Positions 3,224 to 26,159 of a stretch of DNA of 64,000 nucleotides are shown piece by piece. Below the pieces are notes generated by a model, which was not told where the DNA came from, ran no database searches, and saw nothing but the letters and a program-made list of their open reading frames with translations. This DNA is from Alphaproteobacteria bacterium (lineage in GTDB: Bacteria > Pseudomonadota > Alphaproteobacteria > RF32 > CAG-239). The stretch covers positions 225,517 through 289,516 of the forward strand of contig JAFXPE010000032.1 in assembly GCA_017528205.1 (NCBI GenBank). Direction: 5' to 3'. A program made the translations under genes and the position numbers. The first letter of the stretch is position 1. Each line of letters begins with the position of its first letter.

Positions 3224-4327
3224 TTATCTTCCGCGGCCGGTTTGCACCACATGTTGCTGACCGTCACGGGTTGTGGTTACGGTGTATGTATCGATAACCG
3301 TTTTGTGATAGCGATGGCCGATACCGTAACCTTTGCGCCGACTTTTATGCACGACTTGCGTGCCGATTTCTTCCGGTACCAAATACTTTTCATGCGGCTC
3401 GCGCAACAATAGTTTTGCCTTAACCGTCGGATGCACGGCATAAGGATTGACCGCCGTGGTGTCTTTGCTGCCGTCTTCATTGGTGGTAATTTCCATACCG
3501 GCCGGAAATTCGTTGCCATAGCCGCCGATAATGTAAATTTGCTCGCCTTTTTCGTTTTGGTGAACATCTTTACCCATGTAAACGTAACCCAAAGCGGCAC
3601 GCATTTCCTTGACGTAGCTTTCGGCCAGTTGGTTATAAGTTTCTTTAACCTGATTCGCAAATTTATCCACTTCGGAATTGCCGCGTTGGCGCGAATTGTC
3701 GGTCGTCGGCTCGCCGAATTTGCGGGCAATCGTTTCCCATTCGGCATGGCCGCTGTTGAGTTTGGCTTTAAGTAAATCTACGGCGCTGATACCGCGTTTG
3801 TTTTCAATTTGGGTACGAATGCTCGACTCGCCCAACAAATACATGGCAACATCAAAGGCTTTTTGCGTGTCGGAACAATGCTCAATTGCGTTCATCAAGG
3901 CGGTGTTGCCAGATTTTTCACCCTGTGCGTTAACATCGGCGCCGTTTTCGAGCGCGGTTTTTACGCCTTCCAAATCGCCGCGTGCCGCCGCTTGCAACAA
4001 GGTTGCATCAACTTCACTTTGCATTTGCTTTAAGCTGTCGAGTGCTTGCTGATATTGCGTTAGGCGAAATTGATATTTTTCCCTAATCAGTTTGATTTTG
4101 GCAGAATCTGTGCGTCGCTCGGCATATTCCTGTTTTATGCACATATTTTCATAAGGCGAGGCCATAATCGAGTCTGCGGTCGGGTTACGTTTATGCACCA
4201 AATCTTTACCTTCCTGTTCCGGCGTTTTCAGCATTTCGTCACAGCTGGTCAAAGCCGAGCCGGCGGTAAACAATCCGCCCATAACAATGGCGGCTTGCAG
4301 CATTTTATTTTTCATTTCTTTTAACAT
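3224..4327 (-). CDS. Ankyrin-repeat lipoprotein
   Basis: The N-terminus MLKEMKNKMLQAAIVMGGLFTAGSALTSC has a signal peptide plus lipobox. The central region LLQAAARGDLEGVKTALENGADVNAQGEKSGNTALMNAIEH matches ANK repeats. An RBS gggaga lies 6 nt before the ATG. The C-terminal roughly 150 aa are unrecognised. Confidence 0.6.
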   Translation of the reverse strand: MLKEMKNKMLQAAIVMGGLFTAGSALTSCDEMLKTPEQEGKDLVHKRNPTADSIMASPYENMCIKQEYAERRTDSAKIKLIREKYQFRLTQYQQALDSLKQMQSEVDATLLQAAARGDLEGVKTALENGADVNAQGEKSGNTALMNAIEHCSDTQKAFDVAMYLLGESSIRTQIENKRGISAVDLLKAKLNSGHAEWETIARKFGEPTTDNSRQRGNSEVDKFANQVKETYNQLAESYVKEMRAALGYVYMGKDVHQNEKGEQIYIIGGYGNEFPAGMEITTNEDGSKDTTAVNPYAVHPTVKAKLLLREPHEKYLVPEEIGTQVVHKSRRKGYGIGHRYHKTVIDTYTVTTTRDGQQHVVQTGRGR

Positions 4328-4347: not shown

Positions 4348-5334
4348 TTATTTATGTCCGCAAATCGTGTGTGAACGGGCTAAGTTTGTTGCCACCGTCA
4401 GATTTACGCTCGGATTTTGGCCGCGCGGTTTGCTTAATTCTACCGAGAATTGCAATCCGCCTTTGCCGACACCGCCGCGCACCGATAAGTCTCTGTCTTG
4501 GGTAATCACCGATTCGGCAATCGTTTTCCAGCCGCGGTTTAAGTCGTACCACGCCCGCGCTCCCAAGTTGCCGCAATGTTGCTTGGCGTCGTAATGTCCG
4601 AAGATTTTACCGCCGTAGGCCTTGCCGCGAATACCGATTGAGCCGAGCAATTGACGGTGTTCGTCGCCAATTCTGACGGCACCGGTCATATCCAGTTTAA
4701 CTCCGCTTTTTTCTAACAAGGTTACGCCGCATTTGGCCCAAAAGTCGGATTTTTTCAAATTCGGTATAACATAAAAGCCGTCGCCGGAATTACCGATTAT
4801 GCCGAGTTCAACGAACTCGCCACCTTTTTCGTAGCCGAATACAACACGGTTGCTGGCATTGCCGAAGCGCCCGATGTCATAGGCATCGGCATAATAACTC
4901 AAAGGCGAGTCAAAAACGGCTCCTGCCTCGGTGGCGGCACGTCCGGCCTTAAAGGTAATAACCGCGCCGTTGCCGAGTTGTTTGCCGAGTTCGGCCATAA
5001 ACTTAATGGTTAAAGAAGAAAAGGCTTCGTTGTTATAAATAATGCCTTCCTGTCCGGAAAGTTGTGCGTAGTCGCCTTTTTTATTTTCGATTCTGGCCAA
5101 AAACGACGGGGCAAAATCGTTGTAAAAGGTTGTTTTGCCGTCTTCGACGGTCAAACCAGATATATCTGCCGCGTCGAGTTTTAAGGTTATCCGCTCATTG
5201 TCGGCATCAGAATTTGTTTGCGCAGCCGGTTGCTCTTGCGCAGCCGCGGCCGTAGCGGTTAAAAGTAAGGTGTTAAGAACAAAGTTGCGTAAGTTAAAAT
5301 AGTCCATTACCTTACTGAAATTGTTGTTACTCAT
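4348..5334 (-). CDS. Secreted protein of unknown function; the intact member of a tandem paralogue family
   Basis: The N-terminus MSNNNFSKVMDYFNLRNFVLNTLLLTATAAAAQEQ carries a signal peptide. It is paralogous to 5376..6281 and 6387..6689 (shared ...GAENISALTVE..., YYAD..., FGY.KG..F.ELG.IG..GDGF.VIPN...FWA..G.TLLEKSG). Confidence 0.5.
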   Translation of the reverse strand: MSNNNFSKVMDYFNLRNFVLNTLLLTATAAAAQEQPAAQTNSDADNERITLKLDAADISGLTVEDGKTTFYNDFAPSFLARIENKKGDYAQLSGQEGIIYNNEAFSSLTIKFMAELGKQLGNGAVITFKAGRAATEAGAVFDSPLSYYADAYDIGRFGNASNRVVFGYEKGGEFVELGIIGNSGDGFYVIPNLKKSDFWAKCGVTLLEKSGVKLDMTGAVRIGDEHRQLLGSIGIRGKAYGGKIFGHYDAKQHCGNLGARAWYDLNRGWKTIAESVITQDRDLSVRGGVGKGGLQFSVELSKPRGQNPSVNLTVATNLARSHTICGHK

Positions 5335-5375
5335 TGTATTTCTCCTAATTTGTTAATGATAAAATTCTTCAATAA

Positions 5376-6281
5376 TTACTTGTTCGCAGTTTGAAAACGC
5401 GGCAAATTTGCGGCAACCGCCAAATTAACATAAGACGGTTGGTCTTTGGGTTTTCCGTATTCAACCGAAAATTGCACGCCGGATTTATCGGTATCGCCGC
5501 GAATATATAAATTGCAGTCCTGATTGAGTACCGATTTGGCAATCTCACTCCATCCGCGGTTAAAATCTTCCCAAGCGTGCAAACCGATATGGCTCTTGTT
5601 TGCGGCAAAATCATAGTTGCTAAAGCGCATGGCATCGATTCCGCTCTTTTCCAGCAAAGTTAAACCGCTTTGGGCCCAAAAATCGGCATATTTCGGATTA
5701 GGTATCACCAGAAAACCGTCGCCGTTTTTGCCGATGGCGCCCAGCTCAAAAAATTGGCGGCCTTTTTGGTAGCCGAAGACTAATCTTTCAGCGTTGTCTG
5801 CCGTTTTATAGGCGTTACGGGTATCGGCATAATATTCCAAAGCGTAATCAAACAGCTCGGTACCTTCGGTTTTTGGGCTTCTGGCCTTGAAAAAAATGTT
5901 TCCTCCTTTGCCGATTAACCTGCCGAGTTCCGACATAAATCTGGATGTTAAGATGCTGAAATTTTTATCTTCCAAAATTAAGACTTCCGTCGCTTTAAGT
6001 TGCGCATAATCGTCACGCTCGTTTTCGGCGCGTGCGGTTTTATTAGGTCTTAAGTTGTTGTAAAACACGGTTTTATCCTACTCAACGGTCAACGCCGAGA
6101 TGTTTTCTGCGCCAAGCGTCAAAGTCAGCTTGTCCGAACGGACGTCAAAATTGTGTTGCGGAACGTTTTGTTCCTGAGCAAAAGCCGCGGTTGTCGCGGT
6201 CAGCAATAAAGTTTTCAAAACAAGTTTGCATAAATAAAAATTTTTAGTTTCCTGCGTACAGGGGTGGGGGTCATCACTCAT
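5376..6281 (-). pseudogene. Paralogue of 4348..5334, interrupted by an in-frame TAG stop at 6075-6077
   Basis: ORFs 6078..6281 and 5376..6068 are in the same frame and are separated by a single TAG (…LTVE*DKTVFYNN…). Together they align with the full length of the intact paralogue. Confidence 0.5.
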
Positions 6282-6386
6282 TTTTTCCTCCTAATCTTTG
6301 AATGACAATTGTTACCAAAAAAACAATCCGTATCTGAATAATTATGCTTCATCAGTGATCGGAAGCGCACGAAAGGCGTGCGAATT

Positions 6387-6689
6387 TCAATGTAATGAAA
6401 CTCGGTTGGTTTGAAGTATTCTTCCCCCGATGGCCGTGCGTAATCGTTGCGCCCTGTTATTAGGCACAATCAGATACGGTCTTAAATCATCAGAAATGGT
6501 AATTTTGTTTTGATTAAGAGTAAAAGCGGCAATATTTTCCGCACCAAGAATTAAAATCGATGAATGTTTTATATCATCTGAAATAATTTGCGAAACTTTT
6601 TGTTCCTGTAATTGAACCGCAGAAGCGGTCAGTGTTGAAATTTTGCGAATGAAACTCGTCACCTTACAGGGGTGGGGGTCATCACTCAT
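6387..6689 (-). pseudogene. Truncated N-terminal remnant of the same paralogue family
   Basis: It starts with the same MSDDPHPC leader and the same 5' DNA (ggagg-T-run-atgagtgatgacccccacccctgt) as the gene at 6281. Similarity to the family stops after about 60 aa. Confidence 0.4.
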
Positions 6690-8942: not shown

Positions 8943-9935
8943 ATGAGTCGTATCAATGATGTTTTCTATTCTGATATTTACATCACACCGGATAAATTGG
9001 TGTTTGTGCCGGATCCGCATACCGAAAACGGGTTGATACAGATTAAGCCGGAAGATTTCGATACCTTCTACGATTTGTTGGAACGTTCGTTTACCGGTCG
9101 TTCAAGTTATTCGATTGTTTATGAAGGATATTTTTTCCGTGTTGAGCGCACAATGTCTTTATACGGCGTAATGTTCTGTATGCGTAAAATGCCGAAAAAA
9201 GTTCCGGATTTAACCACCCTTGGTTATCCTCCGGCGTTGATTAAATATCTGTCCACACTCGGCAGTGCTTGCGGACTGATTTTATTGGGCGGTGCCACCG
9301 GTTCCGGTAAAACTACGACCATTTCCAGTCTGTTGCGCGAATATCTGGTGCGCAACGGCGGTTTTGCCTACACCATTGAAGATCCGTTCGAAATGCCTCT
9401 AGACGGTGAATATCAAGCGCTTAACGGCTCAATAGGTATGTGCAAACAAACTCAGCCGCTTAACGATGACTGGGGTGCTGCGTTGCGTTCGGCCTTGCGC
9501 TCGCGTCCGCGCTATATATTTGTGGGCGAAATCAGAACACCGGCTACGGCCAGCGAATGTTTGCGTGCGGCAACTTCCGGACACTTGGTGCTTTCTACCA
9601 TTCACGCTAACAACGTTACCGATGCGCTTGACGCCATTGTTAAGCACGCTTCTGCCGGTGAAATGAGTGAAGAACTGGCATTCGACTTGCTCTCTCGCGG
9701 TATTTTGGGCGTTATTCACCAACAACTTATCGGTACCGGTCAAAAACGTCCGGTGGTGCAATTTTTGTTCGCTAACCCTAACACCACGCAAGGCGACCAA
9801 ATGCGCAACATTGTTAAAACCGGCAAATTAAACTTGGCAACCACCATTGAAATGCAAATGACGCGTATGGCGCAAGGCCGTCCGTTGTTTGACATAAGCG
9901 ATTCATATAATTCGAAATCTTCGATAGTCGGGTAA
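8943..9935 (+). CDS. PilT/PilU-family (DotB-like) hexameric secretion or retraction ATPase
   Basis: Walker A is GGATGSGKTTT. Other matches are YTIEDPFE (PilT ITIEDPIE), ALRSALRSRPRYIFVGEIR (the Asp box region) and ATSGHLVLSTIHAN (the His box). The RBS aaaggagagtaaaATG is strong. Confidence 0.7.
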   Translation: MSRINDVFYSDIYITPDKLVFVPDPHTENGLIQIKPEDFDTFYDLLERSFTGRSSYSIVYEGYFFRVERTMSLYGVMFCMRKMPKKVPDLTTLGYPPALIKYLSTLGSACGLILLGGATGSGKTTTISSLLREYLVRNGGFAYTIEDPFEMPLDGEYQALNGSIGMCKQTQPLNDDWGAALRSALRSRPRYIFVGEIRTPATASECLRAATSGHLVLSTIHANNVTDALDAIVKHASAGEMSEELAFDLLSRGILGVIHQQLIGTGQKRPVVQFLFANPNTTQGDQMRNIVKTGKLNLATTIEMQMTRMAQGRPLFDISDSYNSKSSIVG

Positions 9936-9951
9936 GGAAAATTTACTAAAT

Positions 9952-10500
9952 TTATTGAAAAGTCCAAATCAGCGTGTTGTTTTCAACCGTGCATAATTTG
10001 CGCGTGGTATAACGTTTAATCGGCAACGGATGCGCGTCGTCTCCCCAAGCAAACTCGGAAATGCCGTTTTCGTTGATTAGGGTAATTTTTTGCAAACCGA
10101 GTTGCTGTTTATGGCTGACGGAAAGCTCGCTTAAATTTATGCAGGCCGATTTGTTGAGGTTTTTCAGCACGATATCAAAGCTGTTGTCATTTGGCATAGA
10201 AACATCACCGTTTTCGCCTTGGCCGATTTTCAGATTGTCAGCGTTTTTCAACAATTCTTCGACAATCAGACCGTCATCTTTTGCCGATTCGGTGGAAAGT
10301 TTCCAGTATGCCGGTTTGTCGCGATAATAGCTGCGGATATTTTCTGCGGTTTTGAATATCTGTTTGTGCAAGTCCTGATGCGGATTATGAAACAAAACAT
10401 AACTCAGGGTAATGCCGGCAAACAGCAGGCAAATTGCCAATACCAAGCCGTTGACTCCGCTCATGTGAACTTTTCGCAAATTCAGATATACTTTGTTCAT
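9952..10500 (-). CDS. Pilin-like / pseudopilin-like small protein (candidate type IVb pilus subunit)
   Basis: The start was chosen at MNKVYLNL (ATG 10498-10500), immediately after the GspF stop. It has a hydrophobic N-terminal segment, GVNGLVLAICLLFAGITLSYVLF, and a C-terminal Cys pair (ACINL...CTVEN) like a pilin D-region. No canonical G/FxxxE processing site was seen. Confidence 0.35.
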   Translation of the reverse strand: MNKVYLNLRKVHMSGVNGLVLAICLLFAGITLSYVLFHNPHQDLHKQIFKTAENIRSYYRDKPAYWKLSTESAKDDGLIVEELLKNADNLKIGQGENGDVSMPNDNSFDIVLKNLNKSACINLSELSVSHKQQLGLQKITLINENGISEFAWGDDAHPLPIKRYTTRKLCTVENNTLIWTFQ

Positions 10501-10504
10501 GCCG

Positions 10505-11623
10505 CTATTTACCCATGTTGCTGGTGATTTGGTCTTGCATGTCGAAGGTTCCGAACACGGCCCAAGCAATAATACCGGACACGAACAGCATGGCGATAAT
10601 GTTCATCACTTCGGCCTTTTGTTCAATCAAATAAACGGATTCTTCCAACCACTCGTTGGCCAATTTATCCAAAGCCTCTTCAAAGTTATCCAACTCGGAA
10701 TACACCTTCAAGTCGGCGATGATTTGCTTATCCGGAAATTCCATTCTGGCCTTAGACAATGCCTGACCAAGGTTATCACCGTTTTTAATGTGGAATAAAG
10801 CGCCGTCGATACGCTCACGCAAATAGTTGCTGGCGTCTTTGCGCAAAGAAGTTAAGGCAACGGATACCGGCACACCGCCTTTAACCAAAGCGGAAAGCGC
10901 CAAAAGCCAAGTAATACCCGTAAAAATCTTATACAGCGACCACGGCGGGCAACGGTCAACTTTTACCCGAAGTTTACCGGTCCAAATACCGATGGTAAGA
11001 TAAATGGTTAAGCCGATAACCGGCAAAACTGCAAAGGCAAACGCCCAGTTTACCTGAATCCACGCCGACAAATTAACCAAGGAACGCGCCGTTCCCGTCC
11101 ACACGGTGTTAGGTGCGGCACTCAGCATTGGCGGCACCATGTAAACACCGATGGCGTACAAAATCAAAACCGCCATCATCATCAAGAATGACGGGTAGGC
11201 AATAGCGCTGACAATCGGTCTAATCATTCGTTGGGAGCCTTCGGCCACTTTAATAAGGTTTAATAATGCACTCTCCAAGTCGGAAACATCGCCCACGGAA
11301 AGCATCAAGCGCTCACGGTCCGGAGCCCAGCCTTTTAAGGCATCGGAAAACGGATGACCTTCTTGCAACGAGCGTCCCCACGAGCTGACGGCAATTGCCA
11401 TCGGTTCGTTCGGGTGTGCACCTTCTTCCGAAATACCGCCGTAAATCATATCCAGAGAATTCATCAAAGAAAAGCGGTTGCGCAACAAGGCCGCCAATTT
11501 ACGATATATTTTTAAGCGCCCTTTATTTGATAAATTGCACATAAATTTTGCATACATGAGCAACCATTTGTTGGTTGTTCCCATTGCGCGGTTAAAGGCA
11601 CTTTTCCTCTTAATCTCTGGCAT
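10505..11623 (-). CDS. GspF/PilC-family inner-membrane platform protein (R64 PilR-like)
   Basis: Length is 372 aa with three hydrophobic segments. It has the GspF-type cytoplasmic domains (…LDMIYGGISEEGAHPNEP…LSVGDVSDLESALLNL…). Confidence 0.75.
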   Translation of the reverse strand: MPEIKRKSAFNRAMGTTNKWLLMYAKFMCNLSNKGRLKIYRKLAALLRNRFSLMNSLDMIYGGISEEGAHPNEPMAIAVSSWGRSLQEGHPFSDALKGWAPDRERLMLSVGDVSDLESALLNLIKVAEGSQRMIRPIVSAIAYPSFLMMMAVLILYAIGVYMVPPMLSAAPNTVWTGTARSLVNLSAWIQVNWAFAFAVLPVIGLTIYLTIGIWTGKLRVKVDRCPPWSLYKIFTGITWLLALSALVKGGVPVSVALTSLRKDASNYLRERIDGALFHIKNGDNLGQALSKARMEFPDKQIIADLKVYSELDNFEEALDKLANEWLEESVYLIEQKAEVMNIIAMLFVSGIIAWAVFGTFDMQDQITSNMGK

Positions 11624-11636
11624 TTTTTATCCACTC

Positions 11637-13346
11637 CTAATAAATCGGGCGTTGATCCAGCAATCCGCACCAACGTTCAACTTCGTCCAAGTCAATATAT
11701 CCTTTAAGCATACGCTCAATTGCCGCTTCACGCAACGGCCGTCCGTTTAATTCACTTACCCAGTAGTCAATTGCTTCTTTGGTTTCGCCTTTAATCAGCA
11801 ATTGCAAGAAATGGGCATCAGGCAAAATAATTTCCGGCACGGACATACGTCCGACCACACCCTTGTTGCCGCAGAATTTGCAGCCCGGACCTCTGACATA
11901 AGTATTTTCAATACCGTAATCTCCCAAAGCCGTTTCCAAACGCTTGAAAGACGGATCGGAAATACGCTCTTTTACGGAAAGCCGGCAATACGGACAAATT
12001 TTTCTAAACAAACGTTGCGAAATAAGTCCTTTCATAATTTCCGGATCTTCCAACATATAAGATTGTACGCCCATATCGCGCAAACGCGTAATAATGGCCG
12101 GCGCGGAGTTGGCGTGCAATGTTGACCACACACTGTGGCCGGACAAGGCGCCACGGAACACCAAGTTGGCCGCCGAAAGTGTACGAATTTCACCGACCAT
12201 AATCACGTCCGGGTCGGAACGCAAGGCGGCAGACAAGGCTTTGTTGAATGCTTCATCTTTTTCTTCTTCGGTGCTGGCATTGGTAACCGGCATTTGCCGT
12301 GCACCCGGAATCGGATACTCTGGCGGGTCTTCCACGGTAATTACGTTAATTTCGTTATTATGTTCTTGCAACAGCTTAATCATGTTGCGTTGCAGGGTTG
12401 TTGACTTACCGGAACCCGTCGGACCGGCAATAATTTTCAAACCCGTGGCGCTGGCGCGTAAACGATAGAACAAATCAATTTCTCTGTCGCCCAACCCCAA
12501 AGAACGCAAATCACTTTCGCCGTTCGGGTTATCATCGGCGTAAAGCAAACGCATAACCAAATATTGCGAACCGAAAGCTACCGGATTGAATTGCAAACGA
12601 ATAGCCAAAACGTTGTGCGGAAGTCGCAACTTTCCGTTTGTACCGCGCAATGGGGTGGAACCCAGCTTTTGCGCGCCCTGAAACTCGTTTTGCGCGTAGT
12701 TGGCATCAGAAATATCTGCCGAAGCAAACGCCGCACGAACAAAGGCTTCGCCCCATTCTTGCGAATACTCCAATTCGCGCTCCATCATACCGGCGCGGCG
12801 AAAATATACCACGGAAGAATTGCCCACAATAACGTGAATATCGGAAACCTTACTCATTGCTGCACGACTTATCACGCTTAAAAAGTCGATTTGCATTTGA
12901 TAATCGGTGGTTTCTTCCGCCGAAATATTGATTTGACCGGTACCGCGTTCGGCAAAAGCGTAAATGGCCGACAATTCCGCGGTTGAAATATAGCGCGGCT
13001 CCGCTATTAAGACTTTGCGCCGCTTCATGGTGGCGGCAAAGTTCAGCACCTTACCGTCAAAACGGTGCGTTTCATCTACCAAATATGTGCCGTCGGAGAA
13101 CAGGGCAAGCATACGCCGTGTTTCGTTATCAACGGCAATTTCGCCGTCCTCCAAGGTCAGCAAATGGTTATCATGTGCAAAAAGTTGTTCGAAAAGATTT
13201 CCGCTTTTTTTATCGGAACCCTGATCGGAAGATGTATCTATGTCTGAGGTCTTGTTTTCGGTGGTCGTAACAGCAGTAGACTTATCGGCCTCGGTTGCGG
13301 CCGATAAGTTCTCTGCATCGGTTTCTTTCTTTTTGCTCTCAAACAT
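11637..13346 (-). CDS. GspE/PilB-family type II/IV pilus assembly ATPase (R64 PilQ-like)
   Basis: Walker A is GPTGSGKSTT, the Asp box is VEDPPEY, the His box is ALSGHSVWSTLHAN, and the tetracysteine motif is CPYC...CKFC. It has an acidic N-terminal extension. Confidence 0.85.
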   Translation of the reverse strand: MFESKKKETDAENLSAATEADKSTAVTTTENKTSDIDTSSDQGSDKKSGNLFEQLFAHDNHLLTLEDGEIAVDNETRRMLALFSDGTYLVDETHRFDGKVLNFAATMKRRKVLIAEPRYISTAELSAIYAFAERGTGQINISAEETTDYQMQIDFLSVISRAAMSKVSDIHVIVGNSSVVYFRRAGMMERELEYSQEWGEAFVRAAFASADISDANYAQNEFQGAQKLGSTPLRGTNGKLRLPHNVLAIRLQFNPVAFGSQYLVMRLLYADDNPNGESDLRSLGLGDREIDLFYRLRASATGLKIIAGPTGSGKSTTLQRNMIKLLQEHNNEINVITVEDPPEYPIPGARQMPVTNASTEEEKDEAFNKALSAALRSDPDVIMVGEIRTLSAANLVFRGALSGHSVWSTLHANSAPAIITRLRDMGVQSYMLEDPEIMKGLISQRLFRKICPYCRLSVKERISDPSFKRLETALGDYGIENTYVRGPGCKFCGNKGVVGRMSVPEIILPDAHFLQLLIKGETKEAIDYWVSELNGRPLREAAIERMLKGYIDLDEVERWCGLLDQRPIY

Positions 13347-13356
13347 ATTCTGATTT

Positions 13357-15159
13357 TTACCTCACGAACATCCCCTTACCGAAACTCGGCAAGCTGTAAG
13401 AATCTTCACTGCTTGAACCGCTCTTCTTTGATGAAGAAGACTTATTCTTGCTCGAAGACGACTTAACAGAAGAACTGCTCTTGGTAGAGCGAGCGGCCTT
13501 GGTCGGGCTCTTGCTCTTTGAAGCTCTTGACTTTTTGCCGGTTTCGCTCAGCTTTTCCTGCGCCTTCTTTGAATTGTCGTCGGCCTTCGGGGATACACTT
13601 TCATCATCATCGTCATCGCCTTCCATATCTATTTTGGACATGCCGTGAGAGTCTTCAGGCTCGAAGTCCATCGTAATACTTCCCGGGTACAGGTAGCTGC
13701 GGTCGCCGTCCGGAGATTCAAAGATAACGTATTTTTCGGTGATTGAAGTTACAACCGAACCGTCTTTCATTACGGTACCCTTGCGAACGATAAATTCCTT
13801 AACCTGATCACCGCTTGTATTTTGCAAGTCAACCAGTTTGGCAACCAACTCACTGTCATTACCGATAATTTCTTCAATGGCGTAGAATTTGGTAATATCC
13901 TTGTCTTCTTTAACCGGAACTTCATCAAAATTAAAGTCATCATAATTGACTTCTTCGGTAACGTCTTTAACCACAGTACCCTTAAACGGATTAGCGGCAG
14001 CCTCTTGCAATTGCTTTTGCAAATCTCTGATTTTGATGTTGCTTTCACGCAATTCAACACGCAAGTTTTTAATTGAGGTCTTAAGGTTATCGATTTTGCT
14101 GTTAAGCTTTGATACAACCTCAATATGCTTGTCGGCGGCGGCCTGAGCCTGCTCATGAACCTTCAAAATATCGGCACCGAGCGTTTCCATTTTAACCTTA
14201 AAGGTTTCAATCAACTCAACGCGCTCGTCTTCAAGCTCGTGAATCCGATTTTGCAACTTGGCATTTTTCTCCACCCATTGCTGATTCATTATGAGCATTT
14301 CGTTCATATAATCGTTTATAACTTTGGCCTGTCTTAATTTTTCGAGCTCGATTTCTTTTTCTTTTAATTTTCTCTCTTCTTCCAAAATTTTGGCCTGACG
14401 AGCAATTTCTTCTTCTTGAATTTTGGCTTCCAAAGCTCTCTTGCGCTCGGCTTCTTCTTCAAGCATCTTGGTGCGCATTTGGCGCAAAGTAATAACCTGA
14501 TTCTTTAATTCCTCACGCTTTAATTCCAAACGCAGCAAAGTGGTTTGCTTTTCAATGCGGGACATTTGGTTGAACAAATTGTTGTCAACCTTTGAAAGAA
14601 TGGCATTACCGAAACTCTCCAACGGAGATTTAGGAGCTTCCGCGGCCGGAATTTCCGAACCGTCTTCGCCCACGGTCAAATCGTTAAAGTCTTCGGCAAT
14701 CGGAGAATCTTCGGCAAACGGATCGCTGTTATCAATAGGCAATTCGTCGTCCACTTGCAACGGATCGGCGTCTAAAAGCGGATTGGTCGCCGAAGGATCA
14801 CCTTCGGCTTGCAAGTCGGCACCTTCCTCATTTGGCAACGGATTTTCGATATCCAAGTCCTTGAGTTCGTCTTCCACCTGCTTAATTTCCGAATTCAATT
14901 TGGCAATATCGGCCAAAGCCGCGGCTTCTTGTTCCGAAGCGTTTTGCAAAGCTTTGTTTGCGTCTTCGGCAGCATTTTCGACAGCCTGCGGAGCCTCAAC
15001 CGAGTCGACAACATTTTCAACGGCGGACGGCGGAGTTGAATTTTCTGCGTTTGCGGCAACATTATCGTCTGCTGCAAAGCACGCACTGTTTACGGCCAAC
15101 GCAAATGCAAAAGTCAATGCAATTACGGCCACAGTCTTATTTTTCAAATTACAATTCAT
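13357..15159 (-). CDS. Secreted coiled-coil protein with an extremely Ser/Lys-rich C-terminal tail; pilus-cluster component of unknown role
   Basis: The start was chosen at MNCNLKNKTVAVIALTFAFALAVNSACFA (RBS gaaggag 7 nt upstream). The protein has an acidic Pro/Asp region, long heptad-like E/K/L stretches, and a tail ...SKSKSPTKAARSTKSSSSVKSSSSKNKSSSSKKSGSSS. Confidence 0.4.
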   Translation of the reverse strand: MNCNLKNKTVAVIALTFAFALAVNSACFAADDNVAANAENSTPPSAVENVVDSVEAPQAVENAAEDANKALQNASEQEAAALADIAKLNSEIKQVEDELKDLDIENPLPNEEGADLQAEGDPSATNPLLDADPLQVDDELPIDNSDPFAEDSPIAEDFNDLTVGEDGSEIPAAEAPKSPLESFGNAILSKVDNNLFNQMSRIEKQTTLLRLELKREELKNQVITLRQMRTKMLEEEAERKRALEAKIQEEEIARQAKILEEERKLKEKEIELEKLRQAKVINDYMNEMLIMNQQWVEKNAKLQNRIHELEDERVELIETFKVKMETLGADILKVHEQAQAAADKHIEVVSKLNSKIDNLKTSIKNLRVELRESNIKIRDLQKQLQEAAANPFKGTVVKDVTEEVNYDDFNFDEVPVKEDKDITKFYAIEEIIGNDSELVAKLVDLQNTSGDQVKEFIVRKGTVMKDGSVVTSITEKYVIFESPDGDRSYLYPGSITMDFEPEDSHGMSKIDMEGDDDDDESVSPKADDNSKKAQEKLSETGKKSRASKSKSPTKAARSTKSSSSVKSSSSKNKSSSSKKSGSSSEDSYSLPSFGKGMFVR

Positions 15160-16393
15160 AAATTTCTCCTTCGTATGTCCATGTTGCGTTGTTAACATCA
15201 TATGTTATATTTGTAATCTTTAAACCTGAAAATTTCATTAACAAGTCTATCCAAATAAACGGATCGTTGTTTGAGGTAATGTTGAACCCCATCAGTTTAT
15301 ATTGCGTACCGCGCGGCGATACCCAAGTCTTCGGGTTGAAAGATATGTTGATATCCAAGGCCTGATTAATATCGTTCAAGGTATCGATTAAATCATCTTC
15401 TTCGTATTCCGGCGGAGAGTTAAGGGTTTTGGCCTTTTCAACCGGAACGGTTACCATCACCGTGTTACCGTCACGGCTCAAAACGCGAGATGTAAATTGC
15501 ACGCCGGAAACGTCCAAAGCCTGTTCAATCCAGGTTAAACGTCCCAAATCGCGCTTCCACGAAGTAACCAAACCCGAATCCGGAGTGCAGGTAACGCCTT
15601 CCAAACTCCAGCCCGGAGTAACCACTTCAACCACCTTTTGTACGGCCGTGTAGCAATTGCGCATTACATCAACCGGATTTGGTAGCTCTTCCCAAGGTTT
15701 AGGCTCAGGCGGCAATTCTTCCTGTTCCACCTGTTCCACCGGCGCAATAATCGGAGTTTCCGGTGCCGAGAAGAACAAATCTTTCAAAGTGGAATAAGCA
15801 AACCACAAAATAATGGCAAAGCAGGCAACGATTACCGCCAACATAATGGTATCGTTGCTGCCGTTAATCTTATCAAGTCTGACCTGCAGACCTCTTTTTA
15901 ACAAAGCGTCGAGTTCGGAATGTTTGGTATCTTCGATTGCCCATTCTTCCGGTGCAAAAATTGCATCCCAATCCGGCACCGCCAACATGGAAATAAATTG
16001 GTTTTTGGCGTCGCGCTCGTTGATGAACAGGGTATCACCGTCAGAAAGAATAACGTCGTTTCTGTAACAGATGTACCACCAACCGGTATCTACCTTGAAA
16101 ACGCCCAAGAAAGACGTAACATTGCCCAATCCGGAAATTAAGGCAACTGCGGCCGAAGGCAATCCTTTGGTAAAGCCTTGCGAAGATGCGGCCAAACCGA
16201 ACTGCGGTGACTTACCCTTACGGACAACGTATAAATCCGCGCCCTCTAAGATGTTTTCTGCCGCTTCTTTGACTTCCGGTAAAGGCTTGTCTTCATTTAA
16301 CAGCGGCTGCCAAAATAAACTGGCCGCATACGTCGTGTCGCCTTCTTTGAAGGTCGATTTCCAAGCCTTTTCTTCAGTTTGTGTATCGTCCAC
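15149..16393 (-). CDS. Bitopic pilus-assembly protein (cytoplasmic domain, one TM, periplasmic domain; GspL/BfpC/R64 PilO-like architecture)
   Basis: About 190 aa of soluble N-terminus are followed by a single TM (IMLAVIVACFAIILWFAYSTL) and about 200 aa of periplasmic sequence. It lies between the secretin and the ATPase, as in type IVb pilus operons. Confidence 0.35.
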   Translation of the reverse strand: MDDTQTEEKAWKSTFKEGDTTYAASLFWQPLLNEDKPLPEVKEAAENILEGADLYVVRKGKSPQFGLAASSQGFTKGLPSAAVALISGLGNVTSFLGVFKVDTGWWYICYRNDVILSDGDTLFINERDAKNQFISMLAVPDWDAIFAPEEWAIEDTKHSELDALLKRGLQVRLDKINGSNDTIMLAVIVACFAIILWFAYSTLKDLFFSAPETPIIAPVEQVEQEELPPEPKPWEELPNPVDVMRNCYTAVQKVVEVVTPGWSLEGVTCTPDSGLVTSWKRDLGRLTWIEQALDVSGVQFTSRVLSRDGNTVMVTVPVEKAKTLNSPPEYEEDDLIDTLNDINQALDINISFNPKTWVSPRGTQYKLMGFNITSNNDPFIWIDLLMKFSGLKITNITYDVNNATWTYEGEIYEL

Positions 16394-16425
16394 GAGCGTT
16401 CTCCTTTGTCAAAATCTTATTTAAA

Positions 16426-18075
16426 TCAGTCTCTCATTCTGGATTCCGGTGATAACGGGGATTCCATAACCACTGGAGTTAACATAATGATTAAGAGATC
16501 TCTTTTTCTGCTGGCCGATTGTGAGCCGCCCGGGAACATGTTGTCCGGAGAGCCGACACCGGATTTTGAGATTTGATCTTCGGCTCTTTCAAATCCGGCA
16601 AGTACCAACGTTTCACCCGATTTCATCGCCACTTCCTGTGTAAATCCGCGGGTGTCTACGATAGGTTGCTGTACTTTTGCATTTCCGACGGCATACTCAT
16701 TCAAGTCTAACAATTCGGCCAAAGTCAGGTTAAAGAAGACCATCAAACGACCGTGAGCCAAAATTCTCGGCAATACACTCATCATAACACCGGTTGAGAA
16801 AGTACCCGGATCGATTTCGGCTTCGGAGGTGCTGCTTCCCTCGGAAGTAGACTCTATGGATACCTTTTTAACGTAAGAGTGTAATGTTGTGGCTTGAATC
16901 GGTGCCGGTTTATTGTTCATGGTTATAACCGTGCCGGTCGTGACCACATGGGTTTCACCGCTGCTTGACAAGGCGTCAAGTGTTGCGCTGATATCAAAGT
17001 TGCCGCTGACAAGGCCCATACCAAATCGGCTGTAAGTCGGATCTTTAACGACATCAGGACCGTCCATTCCGATATTTCTGTAGCCTTTTAAGCCGGCCTC
17101 ACCTTTTTTGAAGGCAGCTGCCAAATCAAACTTGAAGTTATCGCTGTCATCCATAGAAACTCTCATAATCTTTACGTTGATGGCAATTTGTCGCGCCAAA
17201 CGGTCGTTTTGCTCATTAATATACTTCGAAACTTGGCGAATTTCCGTCGGAGTTGCCGTAACGGTAATGGTGCCGGAACTCTTGTTCAGAGATACGCCGT
17301 CCGAGTTGCTGACCATTTTTTGAACAGTTTCGCCTATTTCTGTCCACAAGTCGATGCTTTCCAAGTTATTTTCCATGGTGAGCTCGCTACTACTGTCGGA
17401 GCTACTGCCGGAATCACTTTCACCGCTTGAAGATGCGTTTGCCGACAAAGATAAGTTCATCGACGGAGTAGTCGGCAATGCGTGCAAAACAAAAGTTTTG
17501 GTAATATACTTATAGAAGTAAACTTCATTCTTTTCATATTTCCACCAAATGCCAAAGCGATTGGCAACTTCGTCCAACAAGCCGCTGAGCGGACCTTTGT
17601 AGTTAACTACCATTTTTTCGCTGGTGGTCCACAAGCTACCGAAATCGGAAATTTTCGGCGCATTGTCGTCAGCGTCTTCATATACTTTCAATCGGCTTTC
17701 ATTTTCCCCTTCTCCTGTAAACTCCGGAGCATAACGCACGGCAATGGAGGTTATTTTGCTCAGCATGGTACCGATTTCAAACAACGTAATCGGTCGGTTG
17801 CTAACCAAGGTAACGCCGTCTTTGGCTTCCAAATACGCCGGAATCGGCTGACCTTCAAATTCCACGGTGGAAGTATCGCCGAGCCAAATATCGTCTTTAA
17901 CCCGAACCACATCATCCGGAACCGGTTCGTTAGGTACGGTTGCTTGTTGTTTAATATCAAGCACATCTTTGGTGCGTTGCGCCATCTCGGCTTCCATATC
18001 CGGTGCTATAGAACAGGCAACGGTTACGCCGACAGCGCCGAGAATTATAAGTTTCAACAAATTAATCATACGCAT
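16426..18075 (-). CDS. Secretin (outer-membrane channel), probably a lipoprotein as in R64 PilN / BfpB / TcpC
   Basis: The N-terminus is MRMINLLKLIILGAVGVTVAC (a lipobox-like VTVAC). The C-terminal secretin domain ends ...GETLVLAGFERAEDQISKSGVGSPDNMFPGG...RKRDLLIIMLTPVV. Confidence 0.7.
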   Translation of the reverse strand: MRMINLLKLIILGAVGVTVACSIAPDMEAEMAQRTKDVLDIKQQATVPNEPVPDDVVRVKDDIWLGDTSTVEFEGQPIPAYLEAKDGVTLVSNRPITLFEIGTMLSKITSIAVRYAPEFTGEGENESRLKVYEDADDNAPKISDFGSLWTTSEKMVVNYKGPLSGLLDEVANRFGIWWKYEKNEVYFYKYITKTFVLHALPTTPSMNLSLSANASSSGESDSGSSSDSSSELTMENNLESIDLWTEIGETVQKMVSNSDGVSLNKSSGTITVTATPTEIRQVSKYINEQNDRLARQIAINVKIMRVSMDDSDNFKFDLAAAFKKGEAGLKGYRNIGMDGPDVVKDPTYSRFGMGLVSGNFDISATLDALSSSGETHVVTTGTVITMNNKPAPIQATTLHSYVKKVSIESTSEGSSTSEAEIDPGTFSTGVMMSVLPRILAHGRLMVFFNLTLAELLDLNEYAVGNAKVQQPIVDTRGFTQEVAMKSGETLVLAGFERAEDQISKSGVGSPDNMFPGGSQSASRKRDLLIIMLTPVVMESPLSPESRMRD

Positions 18076-18763
18076 TTTCGTCCTCCAATGTTTCAATTAC
18101 CAAAACGCGGTTACCTTTATAAAAAGTTGCTACCGGAGCCGGTTTGGCGCGAGCAAAAGCTCTGACCAGTGCAGAAGCCACATCGGCAAAACTGCCGCGG
18201 AACATAGCACCGGCATTCAAAGTGTAGTTACGGTTGGTTTTCCAAATCAACCGCCATCCGGCTTCTTCACTCCACAAGTTGAGCAAGTCACGCAAGCTTT
18301 GGCCTTCTTCCGCCAACCAATCGCCGTTCGGATCATCTCCGGCCATATCTTGCGGATTGGCTTCCGGACCGCTGGCAAACGGAGCCACGTTGCCGACATT
18401 GATTTCCTGTTCGACAACTTCATCGTTGATATCCGGAATAACCACAGCGGAAATATTGTTTCCGGCACCTGCCTGTGTTACACGATGATCACGCGGCGTG
18501 CGTTCTCCGTATGCACGGAAGTCCGCGGCGTTTCGCGTGTAATTTACCGGACCGTTGGGATCGGTGCACTCGCTGTAACCGTCGGCATTTTCAACACAAA
18601 CAGCGTTATATTCCTGATTGCTGGTACAAATTCCGTCGGCGCAAACTTCGCCACCGTAGTAGTCTCTGGAGACATAACATCCGGTTGTACCCAAAACGCA
18701 GCATAACAAGCCGGTAAGCATCAATCTGTTTGTCATTATATTTCTTTCTCTATATTGTTTCAT
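18062..18763 (-). CDS. Lipoprotein of the pilus cluster (PilL/PilM/TcpQ-like position)
   Basis: The signal and lipobox read LMLTGLLCCVLGTTGC. An RBS aggaa lies 7 nt upstream. It sits immediately upstream of the secretin. Confidence 0.4.
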   Translation of the reverse strand: MKQYRERNIMTNRLMLTGLLCCVLGTTGCYVSRDYYGGEVCADGICTSNQEYNAVCVENADGYSECTDPNGPVNYTRNAADFRAYGERTPRDHRVTQAGAGNNISAVVIPDINDEVVEQEINVGNVAPFASGPEANPQDMAGDDPNGDWLAEEGQSLRDLLNLWSEEAGWRLIWKTNRNYTLNAGAMFRGSFADVASALVRAFARAKPAPVATFYKGNRVLVIETLEDENAYD

Positions 18764-18804
18764 CGTATTTTCCTATAACACAGGTTAAAACTGAAATCAT
18801 ATCA

Positions 18805-20409
18805 TCAAAACTTATACCACGGATTGCCGACGCGTCGCGACGCCTCTATCCGTTCTTCGTCTGATGAATATCGCACATTTCTAATAATAAAAGAGTTTGG
18901 TTCTCTATCCGTAAAAATTATGTTAATTTTTTTCGGTTCTACACCGTTATCGGCAAAAATCTTATACAGCATAGTCAGACGCTTTTGTTGTATGGCGCGT
19001 GAAGCCGAGCGGTCCACACGGATTTCAACCACAACGTTTTCGTGTTGCACGGCGTTGTCGGCAAAAGCGTGGAGCCAATCAAGAGTTTGGCCGGAAATTT
19101 CGGCGCGATTCGGTTGAAACGCCAATTTAAGCTCGGTCGGCATAATATCTTTGTCCTTATCGCCGAGCAGGCGTTGAAAAATTGATCCCCCGCGATTTTC
19201 CGACGATTTGTCTTTGCCTTTTTTTGCAGAAGAAGAAGTTATATCGGAAGCCTTATCTTTTATGCCGGCAAACCACGCGGAAATGCTGTCTTTGAAACTC
19301 TGCGACGTTTGTTCGTCTTCAAGCTCGTCTTCCTCCGGCTCTTCGTCAAAATCTTTTTCGTCATCGATACTCGGAATGGCGTCTGATGAGCCGGATTTAT
19401 TTTTGGTGGCTTTGGCCTTATCCGCATCTTCTTCAAGCGGCGGAAGTTTATTTTTGGCCCGCAATTCTTCTTCCAAACGCAGATTCTCTTCCGAAGTTGA
19501 AAATTGCGGTGTCAGATTTTCGTCGTTCAAAATATCTTCCGGAATCGGAATTAAGATATTTTGTTGCATCTTATAAGCCGTCTGGGTTTCAGCCTCGGCA
19601 TCCGGCAGGCTGACATCTTTTTCCAAAACATCGCTTTGTGTTGCCAAAGTGTTTTTGCTAATATGCTTATTGGCCACTTCGGCTACTGCCCACGGATTGT
19701 CGTCATCTTCCGCATTGGCGGATATTTCCGTGTTTTCTTCGCCGGTTTCGGATTTGTTTTTTTCTTCACTCGCGCTGAGCGGCTCGGTAATTTCTGCCTG
19801 ATTTTCCGCGCCCATATTGTAAATGCTGACATTTTTGGAAGCCAGAGCAATTTGTCCCTTATCTGCCTGATCCGAAACGGTAACCACTCCGTTTTCGGTT
19901 TTGTAATTGTGCTTAAGCGGAATTGCAAACACCGGCGCGGTTGAAGCATCGGCAATCTGCAGTTCTTCTTCTGTTGCGGTTTCTTCGTTTTCTTCCTGAA
20001 CAATCAACTCGGAAACGGAATTTTCTTCTGCCGTAACAACAGCAGTGTCCGCAACGCTGTTTTCCGTATTATCCGCCAAATTTTCCTCAACTTCGTCGGA
20101 AGCATACAAAATAGTGTCGCCGTTGATGGTGGAATTGTCGACCGTGTTCAAATCTTCAAAAGTATAGTGCTCGGCATTTTCGCTCAAAGGCGTGTCGGCG
20201 GCAGAAAGTTTTTTGAACTTCTCATAAATCGGATCGCTTTCTTCATTGGCCGCAAAAAGCTCTATATTTCTGGTTTCCATTCCGGCCAGTTGTGCTTCTT
20301 CCTGTTGCTCGTTCAGCGACATAACGATATACGCTTTCGAGGCGATAAACACTGCTGCTATCGAAAGAAAAAAACTACCCGCAAAATATTTCAATCCCAA
20401 TTTTGGCAT
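18805..20409 (-). CDS. Membrane-anchored acidic protein; first gene of the minus-strand pilus operon
   Basis: The likely start is MPKLGLKYFAGSFFLSIAAVFIASKAYIV (ATG 20407-20409, with RBS agga). It has a long D/E-rich middle and a conserved-looking C-terminal domain (…ENVVVEIRVDRSASRAIQQKRLTMLYKIFADNGVEPKKINIIF…). Confidence 0.4.
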   Translation of the reverse strand: MPKLGLKYFAGSFFLSIAAVFIASKAYIVMSLNEQQEEAQLAGMETRNIELFAANEESDPIYEKFKKLSAADTPLSENAEHYTFEDLNTVDNSTINGDTILYASDEVEENLADNTENSVADTAVVTAEENSVSELIVQEENEETATEEELQIADASTAPVFAIPLKHNYKTENGVVTVSDQADKGQIALASKNVSIYNMGAENQAEITEPLSASEEKNKSETGEENTEISANAEDDDNPWAVAEVANKHISKNTLATQSDVLEKDVSLPDAEAETQTAYKMQQNILIPIPEDILNDENLTPQFSTSEENLRLEEELRAKNKLPPLEEDADKAKATKNKSGSSDAIPSIDDEKDFDEEPEEDELEDEQTSQSFKDSISAWFAGIKDKASDITSSSAKKGKDKSSENRGGSIFQRLLGDKDKDIMPTELKLAFQPNRAEISGQTLDWLHAFADNAVQHENVVVEIRVDRSASRAIQQKRLTMLYKIFADNGVEPKKINIIFTDREPNSFIIRNVRYSSDEERIEASRRVGNPWYKF

Positions 20410-20671
20410 ATTAAAATCCTGTTGAATCAATGCAAACCGCCGTTTTTAGGCGACAGTTATCCCACTCTTTTGGTTGAAGATACAACGGATAATGTTAAAA
20501 TACCGTTAATAGGCGGAATAAAGTTGCACAACGCCTAAAAAAACACTTTGCAAAATGCAGCAAATATAATTTTTACGATTTATTTACCAAATTCATATAA
20601 TAATAACGTGTATTTTTATAATGCACATCGTGTGAACCGTCGAATAAATAGGAAAAAACGGACGATTGTTC

Positions 20672-25240: not shown

Positions 25241-25272
25241 CTAAAACAAGGTAGGAATGTATGGAGGTTATC

Positions 25273-26130: not shown

Positions 26131-26159
26131 GAATTGTATGGAGGTTATCATGATGGCTA

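Follow-up and report, generated by a model that had tools for sequence, protein, structure and literature searches.

Gene content of the locus

We analysed a stretch of 64,000 nucleotides (hereafter, the window) of a metagenome-derived alphaproteobacterial contig (JAFXPE010000032.1, positions 225,517 to 289,516), in which positions 8943–20409 carry a cluster of genes for a predicted type IVb pilus machine. All nine open reading frames (ORFs) of this cluster were verified at the coordinates and in the order given by a first-pass annotation of the same DNA, i.e. an eight-gene operon on the minus strand and a convergent ATPase gene. An independent gene caller applied to the source metagenome contig (ENA ERZ28018792, k141_3123974, 239 kb) returned the same genes. 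The operon is tightly packed, with gaps or overlaps of at most 58 nt, and the PilT-like ATPase gene converges on it across a gap of 16 bp. The features of the locus are as follows, with protein lengths in amino acids (aa):

18805–20409, minus strand: MotB-like first gene product ('P541', 534 aa), with its ATG at 20409; no sequence family
18062–18763, minus strand: TcpQ/BfpG-family secretin partner, probable lipoprotein, 233 aa; PF10671
16426–18075, minus strand: PilN/BfpB-type lipoprotein secretin, 549 aa from MRMINLL; TIGR02520, PF00263
15149–16393, minus strand: PilO/BfpC-family bitopic inner-membrane protein, 414 aa; PF06864 PAP_PilO
13357–15159, minus strand: secreted coiled-coil protein assigned to the PilP/BfpU family, 600 aa; TIGR03021 matches in relatives
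11637–13346, minus strand: BfpD-type extension ATPase (T2SSE), 569 aa; PF00437
10505–11623, minus strand: BfpE-type polytopic platform protein (T2SSF), 372 aa; PF00482
9952–10500, minus strand: pilin-fold protein, 182 aa; predicted structure, paralogy
8943–9935, plus strand: BfpF-type (PilT-family) putative retraction ATPase, 330 aa; PF00437
20410–20762, no strand: AT-rich intergenic region separating the divergent pilus operon and first virB2-like gene
20494–20509, minus strand: CtrA-box consensus match; the first ATG of the operon follows about 100 nt downstream

About 8–10 kb were added to the window at each end, so that about 84 kb of the contig was examined. Relatives were obtained from a scan with one genome per species: 239 genomes encode a relative of the pilus ATPase, and the best 80 of these 239 were studied. 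The comparison set of known systems comprised the bfp genes for the bundle-forming pilus (BFP) on plasmid pMAR2 of enteropathogenic Escherichia coli (EPEC), a PilN-type cluster on a Salmonella plasmid and a cluster on a Thalassospira plasmid. Individual loci are cited by L numbers.

Core proteins of the pilus machine

The secretin scored 290.4 bits against TIGR02520 (PilN family, type IVB), above the curated cut-off of 287.65. It shares 29–31% identity with plasmid PilN secretins (E about 1e-63) and 28% with BfpB (E 3e-45). The TcpQ-like protein matched PF10671 TcpQ above the gathering score (E 4.5e-17) and BfpG with 35% identity over 81 aa (E 1.6e-16); in EPEC, BfpG rings the BfpB secretin at 17:17 (PMC12531336). 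The signal peptides of the secretin and of the TcpQ-like protein both end in a lipobox-like cysteine (...A(A/S)CS and ...GC, respectively) that is kept in 19 relatives. Hence, both proteins fit lipoproteins, as the first-pass annotation had suggested for two products of the operon, one of them the secretin. The PilO-like protein matched PF06864 PAP_PilO (E 7.2e-24, 84.8 bits against a cut-off of 26.7) and BfpC (23% identity over 417 aa, E 7e-17), and its translation contains a hydrophobic segment at about residues 183–203. The PilN- and PilO-type families, for which a hidden Markov model (HMM) search had been proposed earlier, were both represented (TIGR02520 and PF06864).

The extension ATPase matched PF00437 (E 1e-64), and its translation shows the tetracysteine motif (CPYC...CKFC) that had already been noticed in this GspE-like protein. 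It shares 35% identity with BfpD over 541 aa (E 5e-98). BfpD was also its best match in the PDB (E 2.2e-90, residues 45–561), compared with E 5e-48 for GspE. The platform protein matched PF00482 T2SSF in two stretches (E 2e-24) and BfpE with 31% identity over 339 aa (E 1.6e-62). The ATPase and the platform protein also match models built for type II secretion systems (T2SS), below the cut-offs.

The convergent PilT-like ATPase matched PF00437 (E 5.8e-32), and its best PDB matches were PilT structures (E 1e-24). It aligned with BfpF over its whole length (33% identity over 330 aa, E 5e-49) and is, on this alignment, a full-length BfpF-type putative retraction ATPase. The earlier remark that a PilT/DotB-family ATPase is uncommon for type IVb pili does not hold for an enzyme of the BfpF type; in EPEC, BfpD extends and BfpF retracts the pilus (PMC12531336). 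Of the related loci, 47 have a BfpF-like gene (>55% identity) no more than 10 kb downstream of the operon; as a rule this gene is convergent and not more than 100 bp away. L088 and the most divergent subclade carry it on the operon strand, after the pilin genes, which suggests that the ancestral operon ended in platform gene (E), pilin-like gene, pilin genes and retraction ATPase gene (F). An ATPase of about 345 aa (T2SS/type IV pilus family) was also observed beside the prepilin peptidase gene on the Thalassospira plasmid (L084, 9090–10127) and on the Salmonella plasmid (L085, 8198–9238), so that a small second ATPase is not rare in such pilus clusters.

By alignment, the coiled-coil protein begins with a signal peptide, which is followed by an acidic region that varies and by a conserved coiled coil; a PilP-type beta domain at the C-terminus ends in a conserved ...PSLGxGMFVK tail. 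When the C-terminal domains of 21 clade members were compared singly with NCBIfam, 20 matched TIGR03021 pilP_fam (best E 2.4e-6) and four matched GspC. An HMM of the clade found BfpU (E 1e-3) and the Thalassospira protein at the PilP position (E 2e-4) in a small database, and a profile search of the PDB returned coiled-coil noise only. Because the C-terminal domains of 20 relatives match TIGR03021, we assign the protein to PilP at family level only, and read it as a PilP/BfpU homologue with an N-terminal extension of about 380 residues. BfpU was matched through family profiles only, unlike BfpG, BfpB, BfpC, BfpD, BfpE and BfpF, which were matched by direct sequence comparison.

In total, the retraction ATPase and six of the seven conserved core proteins had their best characterised match in BFP; only the secretin did not. 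Judged by these matches, the cluster is a type IVb pilus machine whose nearest characterised system is the BFP of EPEC rather than R64. The first-pass annotation had recognised a type IVb cluster with the core order shared by the R64, Tcp and Bfp systems, and the order matches and the secretin passes TIGR02520. Its choice of R64 as the closest relative has to be revised, since the ATPase, the platform protein and the PilO-, TcpQ- and PilT-like proteins all scored best against BFP. Furthermore, its assignment of the genes from R64 pilL onward was off by one: the TcpQ lipoprotein is the BfpG/TcpQ equivalent, and the first gene is an extra one. We take the TcpQ-domain lipoprotein to correspond to R64 PilL, and the core gene order to be common to R64 pilL–S.

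Two other identities were considered for the cluster as a whole and rejected. A T2SS would not fit the scores of the secretin against GspD (47 bits, cut-off 351) and of the ATPase against GspE (219 bits, cut-off 630), nor the absence of GspC/L/M and of a GspG–K pseudopilin set. A type IVa pilus would not fit the scores of the secretin against PilQ (42.8 bits, cut-off 284), of the extension ATPase against PilB (188.9 bits, cut-off 675) and of the PilT-like ATPase against pilT_fam, its best NCBIfam model (123.7 bits, cut-off 319).

Pilin-like protein and prepilins

The operon ends with the gene for the pilin-like protein, which is conserved across 85 database clusters. Its AlphaFold2 (AF2) model reached a pLDDT (predicted local distance difference test) of 87.5, and in a Foldseek search of the PDB the top 11 matches were all type IVb pilins (TcpA, CofA, the type IVb pilus of enterotoxigenic E. 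coli (ETEC) and S. Typhi PilS), with probabilities of 0.57–0.99, nine of them at 0.89 or above. A comparison of the pilin-like family with the canonical pilins of the clade by hhalign gave 97.5% (E 8e-12), and the family has two invariant cysteines; the match to PF08805 was weak (E 0.077). Position +5 was always hydrophobic and in none of the 26 homologues a glutamate, while the putative -1 position was Gly in 15 of the 26 and Ser or Thr in eight. In this genome a possible cleavage site reads ...SGVNG↓LVLAI, the arrow marking the cleaved bond. By sequence comparison, then, the protein is a degenerate paralogue, without Glu5, of the bundlin/PilS-type pilins of the clade, and not a major prepilin. 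Of the pilin-like ORF reported earlier, the type IVb pilin fold is retained, while its status as a canonical prepilin is not. It had also been noted that the cluster would better be called a T2SS or an unrelated system if this ORF had no prepilin leader and a pseudopilin operon or a type II secretion substrate set was found instead; a proper leader is indeed missing, but there is neither a pseudopilin set nor a T2SS signature.

True prepilins occur in the relatives. They have the invariant N-terminus G↓RSM(V/I)EMLGVLAIIGVL and two conserved cysteines, and were present in 17 related loci as one to three tandem copies. They directly follow the pilin-like gene in L067, L074, L076, L077, L078, L081, L082 and L088, and lie elsewhere within 10 kb in L010, L014, L047, L051, L056, L071 and L083. 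The clearest BFP-like order was found in L088, where two canonical Bundlin+PilS prepilin genes are followed by the PilT-like gene on the same strand. The clade pilins carry the Bundlin domain and match BfpA, and the clade clearly has bundlin-type pilins for this machine. In the protein database the prepilin family comprises at least 7998 distinct sequences; the best 120 matches, those listed, carry PF05307 Bundlin and PF08805 PilS. Example prepilin loci are L074:13381–15383, L077:13493–15552 and L088:9267–10603. Behind the invariant N-terminus the heads of these tandem paralogues vary strongly, which, together with the large number of sequences, suggests strong diversification.

None of the best 120 matches listed to the clade pilin profile could be traced to this genome, and two ORFs near gyrB that lack annotation (about 190 aa each) do not encode pilins. 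Canonical pilin genes were also missing after the operon in the nearest relatives (L004–L009, L042 and L064). A prepilin-motif scan found no further prepilin-type (minor pilin) gene near any of the 80 clusters. Relocation of the prepilin genes is likelier than their loss, because the close relatives L010 and L014 keep them elsewhere within 10 kb.

The atypical pilin invites the alternative that the cluster is mainly a protein-export device, either T2SS-like or a secreting type IVb pilus, in which the Glu5-less pilin would form a short periplasmic pseudopilus. The only pilin-fold gene near the machine is non-canonical, neither a major prepilin nor a peptidase is encoded in the 84 kb, and the ATPase and platform protein do resemble T2SS models. 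Moreover, type IVb pili can export soluble proteins: the toxin-coregulated pilus (TCP) exports TcpF, and colonization factor antigen III (CFA/III) exports CofJ. We nevertheless consider this explanation unlikely, as the secretin passes the PilN model and falls far short of GspD, the ATPase matches BfpD much better than GspE, and GspC/L/M and a G–K set are absent. Furthermore, the BfpF-type retraction ATPase is a feature of pili, and relatives hold one to three canonical bundlin-type major pilin genes in the operon.

The same gaps might indicate a decaying system that has lost its major pilins and had its retraction ATPase gene inverted, leaving a non-functional or re-purposed remnant. The missing pilin genes after the operon, here and in the nearest relatives, would agree with decay, as would the orientation of the PilT-like gene, which is inverted relative to L088, L080 and L067. 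Decay is highly improbable, however, given that the nine ORFs are intact with 45–93% identity among close relatives, that the block with the CtrA box is invariant, and that L010 and L014 have kept their canonical prepilins nearby.

First gene product

In the first gene product, a membrane anchor at the N-terminus is joined by a long, acidic linker of low conservation to a C-terminal domain that is conserved; the start codon is consistent with the homologues. It had no match in Pfam or NCBIfam, 25 relatives had no Pfam match at E ≤ 0.001, and a profile search detected no sequence relative in the PDB. The 748 homologues comprise only proteins from metagenome-assembled genomes (MAGs) of uncultured Alphaproteobacteria, as far as their source is named. 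An AF2 model of residues 270–534 contained a C-terminal beta-alpha-beta-alpha-beta-beta domain (pLDDT about 80), for which all 50 of the top 50 Foldseek matches were OmpA-like, MotB or Pal proteins (probability 1.00, E down to 1.2e-5). The modelled domain thus has the OmpA/MotB fold, although none of 26 family members matched PF00691 or any other Pfam family by sequence. The combination of a membrane anchor, a long linker and an OmpA-fold domain gives the protein a MotB-like topology, and the model suggests that it is probably a cell-wall anchor that ties the machine to the cell wall. A counterpart was not found in BFP or in the two PilN-type plasmid clusters.

Chromosomal setting and distribution

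Housekeeping genes surround the cluster. The window interior also carries rpmH-rnpA-yidC-engB, hflK/C, degP and the gene for an Mrp-type ATPase; uvrA, tyrS, queH, gyrB and lptCAB lie just beyond its ends, and both added contig ends contain housekeeping genes only. The G+C content was 0.41–0.48 in the cluster and flanks alike. A megablast search with the 11.6-kb region against 72,556 plasmids gave zero matches. Because the flanks carry housekeeping genes and have the same G+C content, the setting of the cluster is chromosomal and not that of a mobile element.

The ATPases of the best 80 species-level genomes showed 68–90% identity. These genomes are uncultured gut, rumen or faecal MAGs, mostly labelled Alphaproteobacteria; other labels were Rhodospirillaceae, Azospirillaceae and one 'Ca. 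Scatocola', and a few bins were evidently mislabelled. We take the lineage to be GTDB order RF32, with 'Ca. Scatocola' among its members. According to the record titles they derive from metagenomes of the human gut (including Hadza and Nepali), rumen, horse, rabbit and chicken. The eight-gene order was kept in essentially all 80 loci. Since the arrangement recurs in 80 species-level genomes, it does not reflect chance, and the sequence divergence of the block across these species tracks that of the genomes. The cluster is passed on vertically, as part of the chromosome of an uncultured alphaproteobacterium of gut or rumen.

Several other features of the surroundings were observed. The cumulative GC skew has its minimum exactly at the divergent spacer between the pilus operon and the neighbouring secretion genes (~20000), with rpmH-rnpA-yidC and gyrB nearby; this may reflect the switch of coding strand alone or a position of the block near the replication origin. 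At 3224–4327 (minus strand), a few kb away from the pilus genes, lies the gene for a possible eukaryote-directed factor, a protein with ankyrin repeats (PF13637, E 2.6e-8) whose signal peptide resembles that of a lipoprotein. A small paralogous family occupies 4348–6689 (minus strand). Its 328-aa and 230-aa proteins are alike over their C-terminal two-thirds (...GDGFxVIPN...FWAxxGxTLLEKSG...), and the short ORFs at 6078–6281 and 6387–6689 both start with MSDDPHPC, resemble the N-terminus of the 328-aa protein and look like gene fragments. No family could be assigned to these paralogous proteins, and homologues adjoin the cluster in a few close relatives (L004, L005, L007 and L064).

Pairing with a VirB-type type IV secretion system

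Divergently from the pilus operon, a set of genes for a VirB-type type IV secretion system (T4SS) starts at 20763, comprising three copies of VirB2, VirB3, VirB4, further genes, two copies of VirB8, VirB9, VirB10 and VirB11. The set ends at VirB11 and is followed by a DUF3137 protein and by engB/yidC (48049–50212 onward). Among the 59 loci with enough flank, 51 have VirB2-like genes upstream of the pilus operon in divergent orientation; in the rearranged locus L081 the T4SS has moved downstream yet is still adjacent. The physical pairing of the pilus with a VirB-type T4SS, rather than an I-type or GI-type T4SS, was already part of the first-pass annotation and extends to most of the related loci. 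The window and the ~84 kb inspected yielded neither a VirD4-type coupling protein nor a relaxase, and there was no integrase among the window ORFs scanned.

Some parts of the T4SS are unusual. Between VirB4 and the first VirB8, about 10 kb (25261–35807, plus strand) encode proteins of 232, 253, 517, 515, 485 and 1493 aa, which belong to no Pfam or NCBIfam family; their genes occupy the place expected for VirB5/VirB6-type genes. Together with the triplicated VirB2 and duplicated VirB8, this layout recalls what we take to be that of the vir homologues of Rickettsiales. In the interval between VirB9 and VirB10, 39310–43881 (plus strand) encodes a 1523-aa protein with beta-flower (PF21785/PF21784), DUF3659 and RHS-like repeats. 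The 1395-aa VirB10 (43884–48071, plus strand) has its TrbI domain at residues 1100–1303, and its N-terminal part bears beta-flower repeats as in the 1523-aa protein. The C-terminus of VirB9 contains a weak SPOR-like stretch.

A pilus next to a T4SS could also be a thin pilus that stabilises mating pairs, in the style of R64, PAPI-1 and SPI-7, in which case the pilus and T4SS block would be an integrated mobile element. The core order is common to PilN-type plasmid clusters, there are family matches to PilN, PilO and PilP, and type IVb pili and T4SSs also adjoin each other on plasmids, e.g. the DotD/TraJ-like genes on the Thalassospira plasmid. On the other hand, the search of the window recovered no relaxase, coupling protein, integrase, Rci, shufflon or PilV. 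The first-pass annotation had likewise seen no prepilin peptidase, Rci shufflon or PilV, and none was present among the window ORFs scanned. The housekeeping flanks, uniform G+C content and lack of any megablast match to plasmids, and an arrangement that 80 species share, with a sequence divergence in step with the genomes, likewise speak against a mobile element. The T4SS is moreover VirB-type, with duplicated VirB2 and VirB8, and not I-type or GI-type. In our view a mating-pair-stabilising role is very unlikely. As an identity for the whole cluster, an R64-type conjugative thin pilus on a mobile element was rejected (chromosomal setting, no PilV, Rci or PilU, VirB-type T4SS).

Regulation

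The spacer between the pilus operon and the first virB2-like gene has conserved blocks on both sides. Within a conserved block of ~60 nt on the pilus side (about 20440–20510), which contains TTAAC-N6-TTTTAAC, lies the sequence TTAACGGTATTTTAAC, an exact fit to TTAA-N7-TTAAC; the latter is the CtrA-binding consensus of Alphaproteobacteria. This match at 20494–20509 was the sole exact one in the 64-kb window. Across 1.5 Mb of related loci, about 38 of 55 CtrA-box matches were the same element, oriented alike and placed ~100 nt upstream of the first gene. In an alignment of the spacer from 10 species the CtrA box was invariant, while the rest of the spacer diverged.

The box has one mismatch in a second subclade and is absent from the third, most divergent subclade (L067, L072, L074, L077, L078 and L080–L083). 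In this last subclade the leader about 30–110 nt upstream of the first pilus gene is strongly conserved instead (...CCACAnATTTGTGCATA...CTTGCCAAGAGTCGCATaTTGAatTATCTAG..TTTAGAGGGGTTT). It could be a promoter, a 5' untranslated region (UTR) element or the binding site of another regulator.

Promoter-like hexamers in the 353-bp spacer occurred at chance level (three found, 2.2 expected in shuffles), and scans of both intergenic regions for sigma-70 promoters and terminators gave chance-level results as well. The first-pass annotation had viewed the spacer as a control region shared by the pilus and the T4SS; this is not borne out, as promoter-like matches are at chance and the sole conserved element, the CtrA box, is on the pilus side. 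As a prediction from the motif, transcription of the pilus operon is probably under CtrA-type control.

Proposed mechanism and significance

It is very probable that the cluster encodes a complete envelope-spanning motor for a type IVb pilus of the BFP type that is inherited vertically with the chromosome. Homology assigns the outer-membrane channel to the lipoprotein secretin with its ring of the TcpQ/BfpG-type partner, and the link between this channel and the BfpE-type platform in the inner membrane to the PilO/BfpC and PilP/BfpU proteins. It likewise assigns extension to the BfpD-type ATPase and retraction to the BfpF-type ATPase. The MotB-like protein probably fixes the machine to the cell wall, and the coiled coil of PilP may span or cage its periplasmic part, perhaps reflecting a wider periplasm.

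The fibre probably consists of bundlin/PilS-type prepilins which, going by the relatives, would be encoded outside the ~84 kb and cleaved by an unlinked peptidase. The Glu5-less pilin most likely serves as a minor, priming or tip subunit or, where Gly -1 is lost, perhaps as an assembly factor retained in the membrane. A priming or tip subunit would be analogous to the GspK-type tip pseudopilins, which also lack Glu5.

Several points weigh against this reading. HMM, tblastn and motif scans of the window detected no canonical prepilin, and the ~84 kb of contig examined contained none either; an A24 prepilin peptidase was likewise missing from the window, from the ~84 kb and from the ±10 kb around the cluster in the 80 relatives. 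Counterparts of bfpP, bfpH, bfpI/J/K and bfpL, which belong to the BFP gene set, were not found at the locus by BLAST, HMM or prepilin-motif scans. The window protein was the sole miss among the 21 PilP-type C-terminal domains, with a full-length match to TIGR03021 of only E 0.85, and the comparison of the coiled-coil family with the Thalassospira PilP-position protein by hhalign was not significant (Prob 2%). For the pilin-like protein, the Foldseek E-values were modest (6e-3 to 0.1) and the TM (template modelling) score was about 0.4. The Asp with which OmpA-like domains canonically bind peptidoglycan is apparently replaced in the first gene product, as read from the alignment by eye. Finally, the link between pilus and T4SS is one of gene adjacency alone, and the machine is known here from genes alone.

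Because the head-to-head T4SS is conserved and there is no coupling-protein or relaxase gene in the ~84 kb, the most likely role of the pilus would be retractile attachment that brings a target cell within reach of the T4SS. Retraction of the pilus would thereby draw the target cell to the neighbouring T4SS, and the pairing suggests that these bacteria attach to, and inject into, other cells. A bolder proposal is that the BFP-like pilus and the VirB-type T4SS form one hard-wired 'grab, pull and inject' organelle under CtrA-type control, vertically inherited and core to an order-level gut/rumen lineage. We put this forward only tentatively and rate it as rather doubtful. If it were true, these widespread, unstudied gut bacteria would make their living through contact with other cells, be they protists, bacteria or the host epithelium, and the MotB-like anchor, the giant coiled-coil PilP and the Glu5-less pilin would be adaptations of a type IVb pilus to a contact role. 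The diverse repertoire of bundlin-like pilins would then set target specificity.

Most of what is known of BFP-type pili comes from virulence systems that enteric pathogens carry on plasmids. Here, a BFP-type machine is chromosomal and occurs in every one of the 80 relatives sampled, and its near-constant pairing with a T4SS yields the testable hypothesis of a life by contact-dependent attachment and delivery. The OmpA-fold anchor, long coiled-coil PilP and Glu5-less pilin paralogue would provide natural variants of type IVb pilus parts for work on the mechanism. The predicted CtrA box would tie pilus production to the alphaproteobacterial cell-cycle regulator.

Comparison with known systems

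The searched literature contained no paper on the pili or secretion systems of this lineage, nor one on the features presented here as new. BFP, encoded by bfpA-G-B-C-U-D-E-F-P-H-I-J-K-L on EPEC pMAR2/EAF, shares with the cluster the order TcpQ/G, secretin/B, PilO/C, PilP/U, ATPase/D, platform/E, (pilins) and F, and the secretin is a lipoprotein in both. In contrast to BFP, which resides on a virulence plasmid, this cluster is chromosomal in Alphaproteobacteria. The major pilin gene bfpA heads the bfp operon, whereas here a major pilin gene is not at the head and is absent from the window. The extra MotB/OmpA-like first gene, the Glu5-less pilin paralogue and the linkage to a VirB-type T4SS are further differences from BFP. 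In addition, the BfpU/PilP homologue is about 3.6 times longer and contains a coiled coil, and the secretin is nearer to PilN-type plasmid secretins than to BfpB. The TcpQ-like partner is lipoprotein-like, whereas BfpG is not a lipoprotein (PMC12531336).

The pil clusters of R64/IncI1, PAPI-1 and SPI-7 have in common with this cluster the PilN secretin, PilO, PilP, the ATPase, the platform protein, the core order and the linkage to a T4SS, as well as the PilS-type pilin domain, which here occurs in the pilins of the clade. They differ in that the PilV adhesin, Rci shufflon, lytic transglycosylase and PilU peptidase of R64-type systems were not found in this locus. Moreover, the T4SS is VirB-type without a nearby relaxase or type IV coupling protein (T4CP) instead of I-type/GI-type, and the cluster is not on a mobile element. 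A PilT-family retraction ATPase is present here, whereas we know of none in R64. The ATPase and platform protein scored lower against the PilN-type plasmid cluster than against BFP.

TCP of V. cholerae and CFA/III/Longus of ETEC also belong to the type IVb class, have a TcpQ-domain partner and a lipoprotein secretin, and their pilins TcpA and CofA are the closest to the predicted structure of the pilin-like protein. Unlike in these systems, no large TcpB/CofB-type minor pilin or TcpF/CofJ-type secreted factor was identified here. TCP and CFA/III are without a retraction ATPase, and their retraction depends on a minor pilin (PMC5207764).

For the secretin, the highest-ranking match on a plasmid came from NZ_CP004389 of Thalassospira xiamenensis (29.5% identity, covering 97% of the protein). 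The cluster on this plasmid has the same order of TcpQ, PilN, PilO2, PilP-like protein, ATPase, platform protein and pilin, with a PilP-like protein of 232 aa that has a signal peptide and a coiled coil, and it likewise has a 345-aa PilT-like ATPase and adjoining T4SS genes. It differs by its own prepilin peptidase, a canonical major pilin, a DotD/TraJ-type (I-type) T4SS and the lack of a MotB-like gene.

The type of machine was already known. New are its clade-wide chromosomal occurrence in uncultured gut Alphaproteobacteria and its conserved head-to-head pairing with a VirB-type T4SS. Also new are the predicted MotB/OmpA-fold first gene product, the enlarged PilP, the conserved Glu5-less pilin paralogue, the CtrA box, and the location of the genes for the major pilin and the peptidase apart from the machine.

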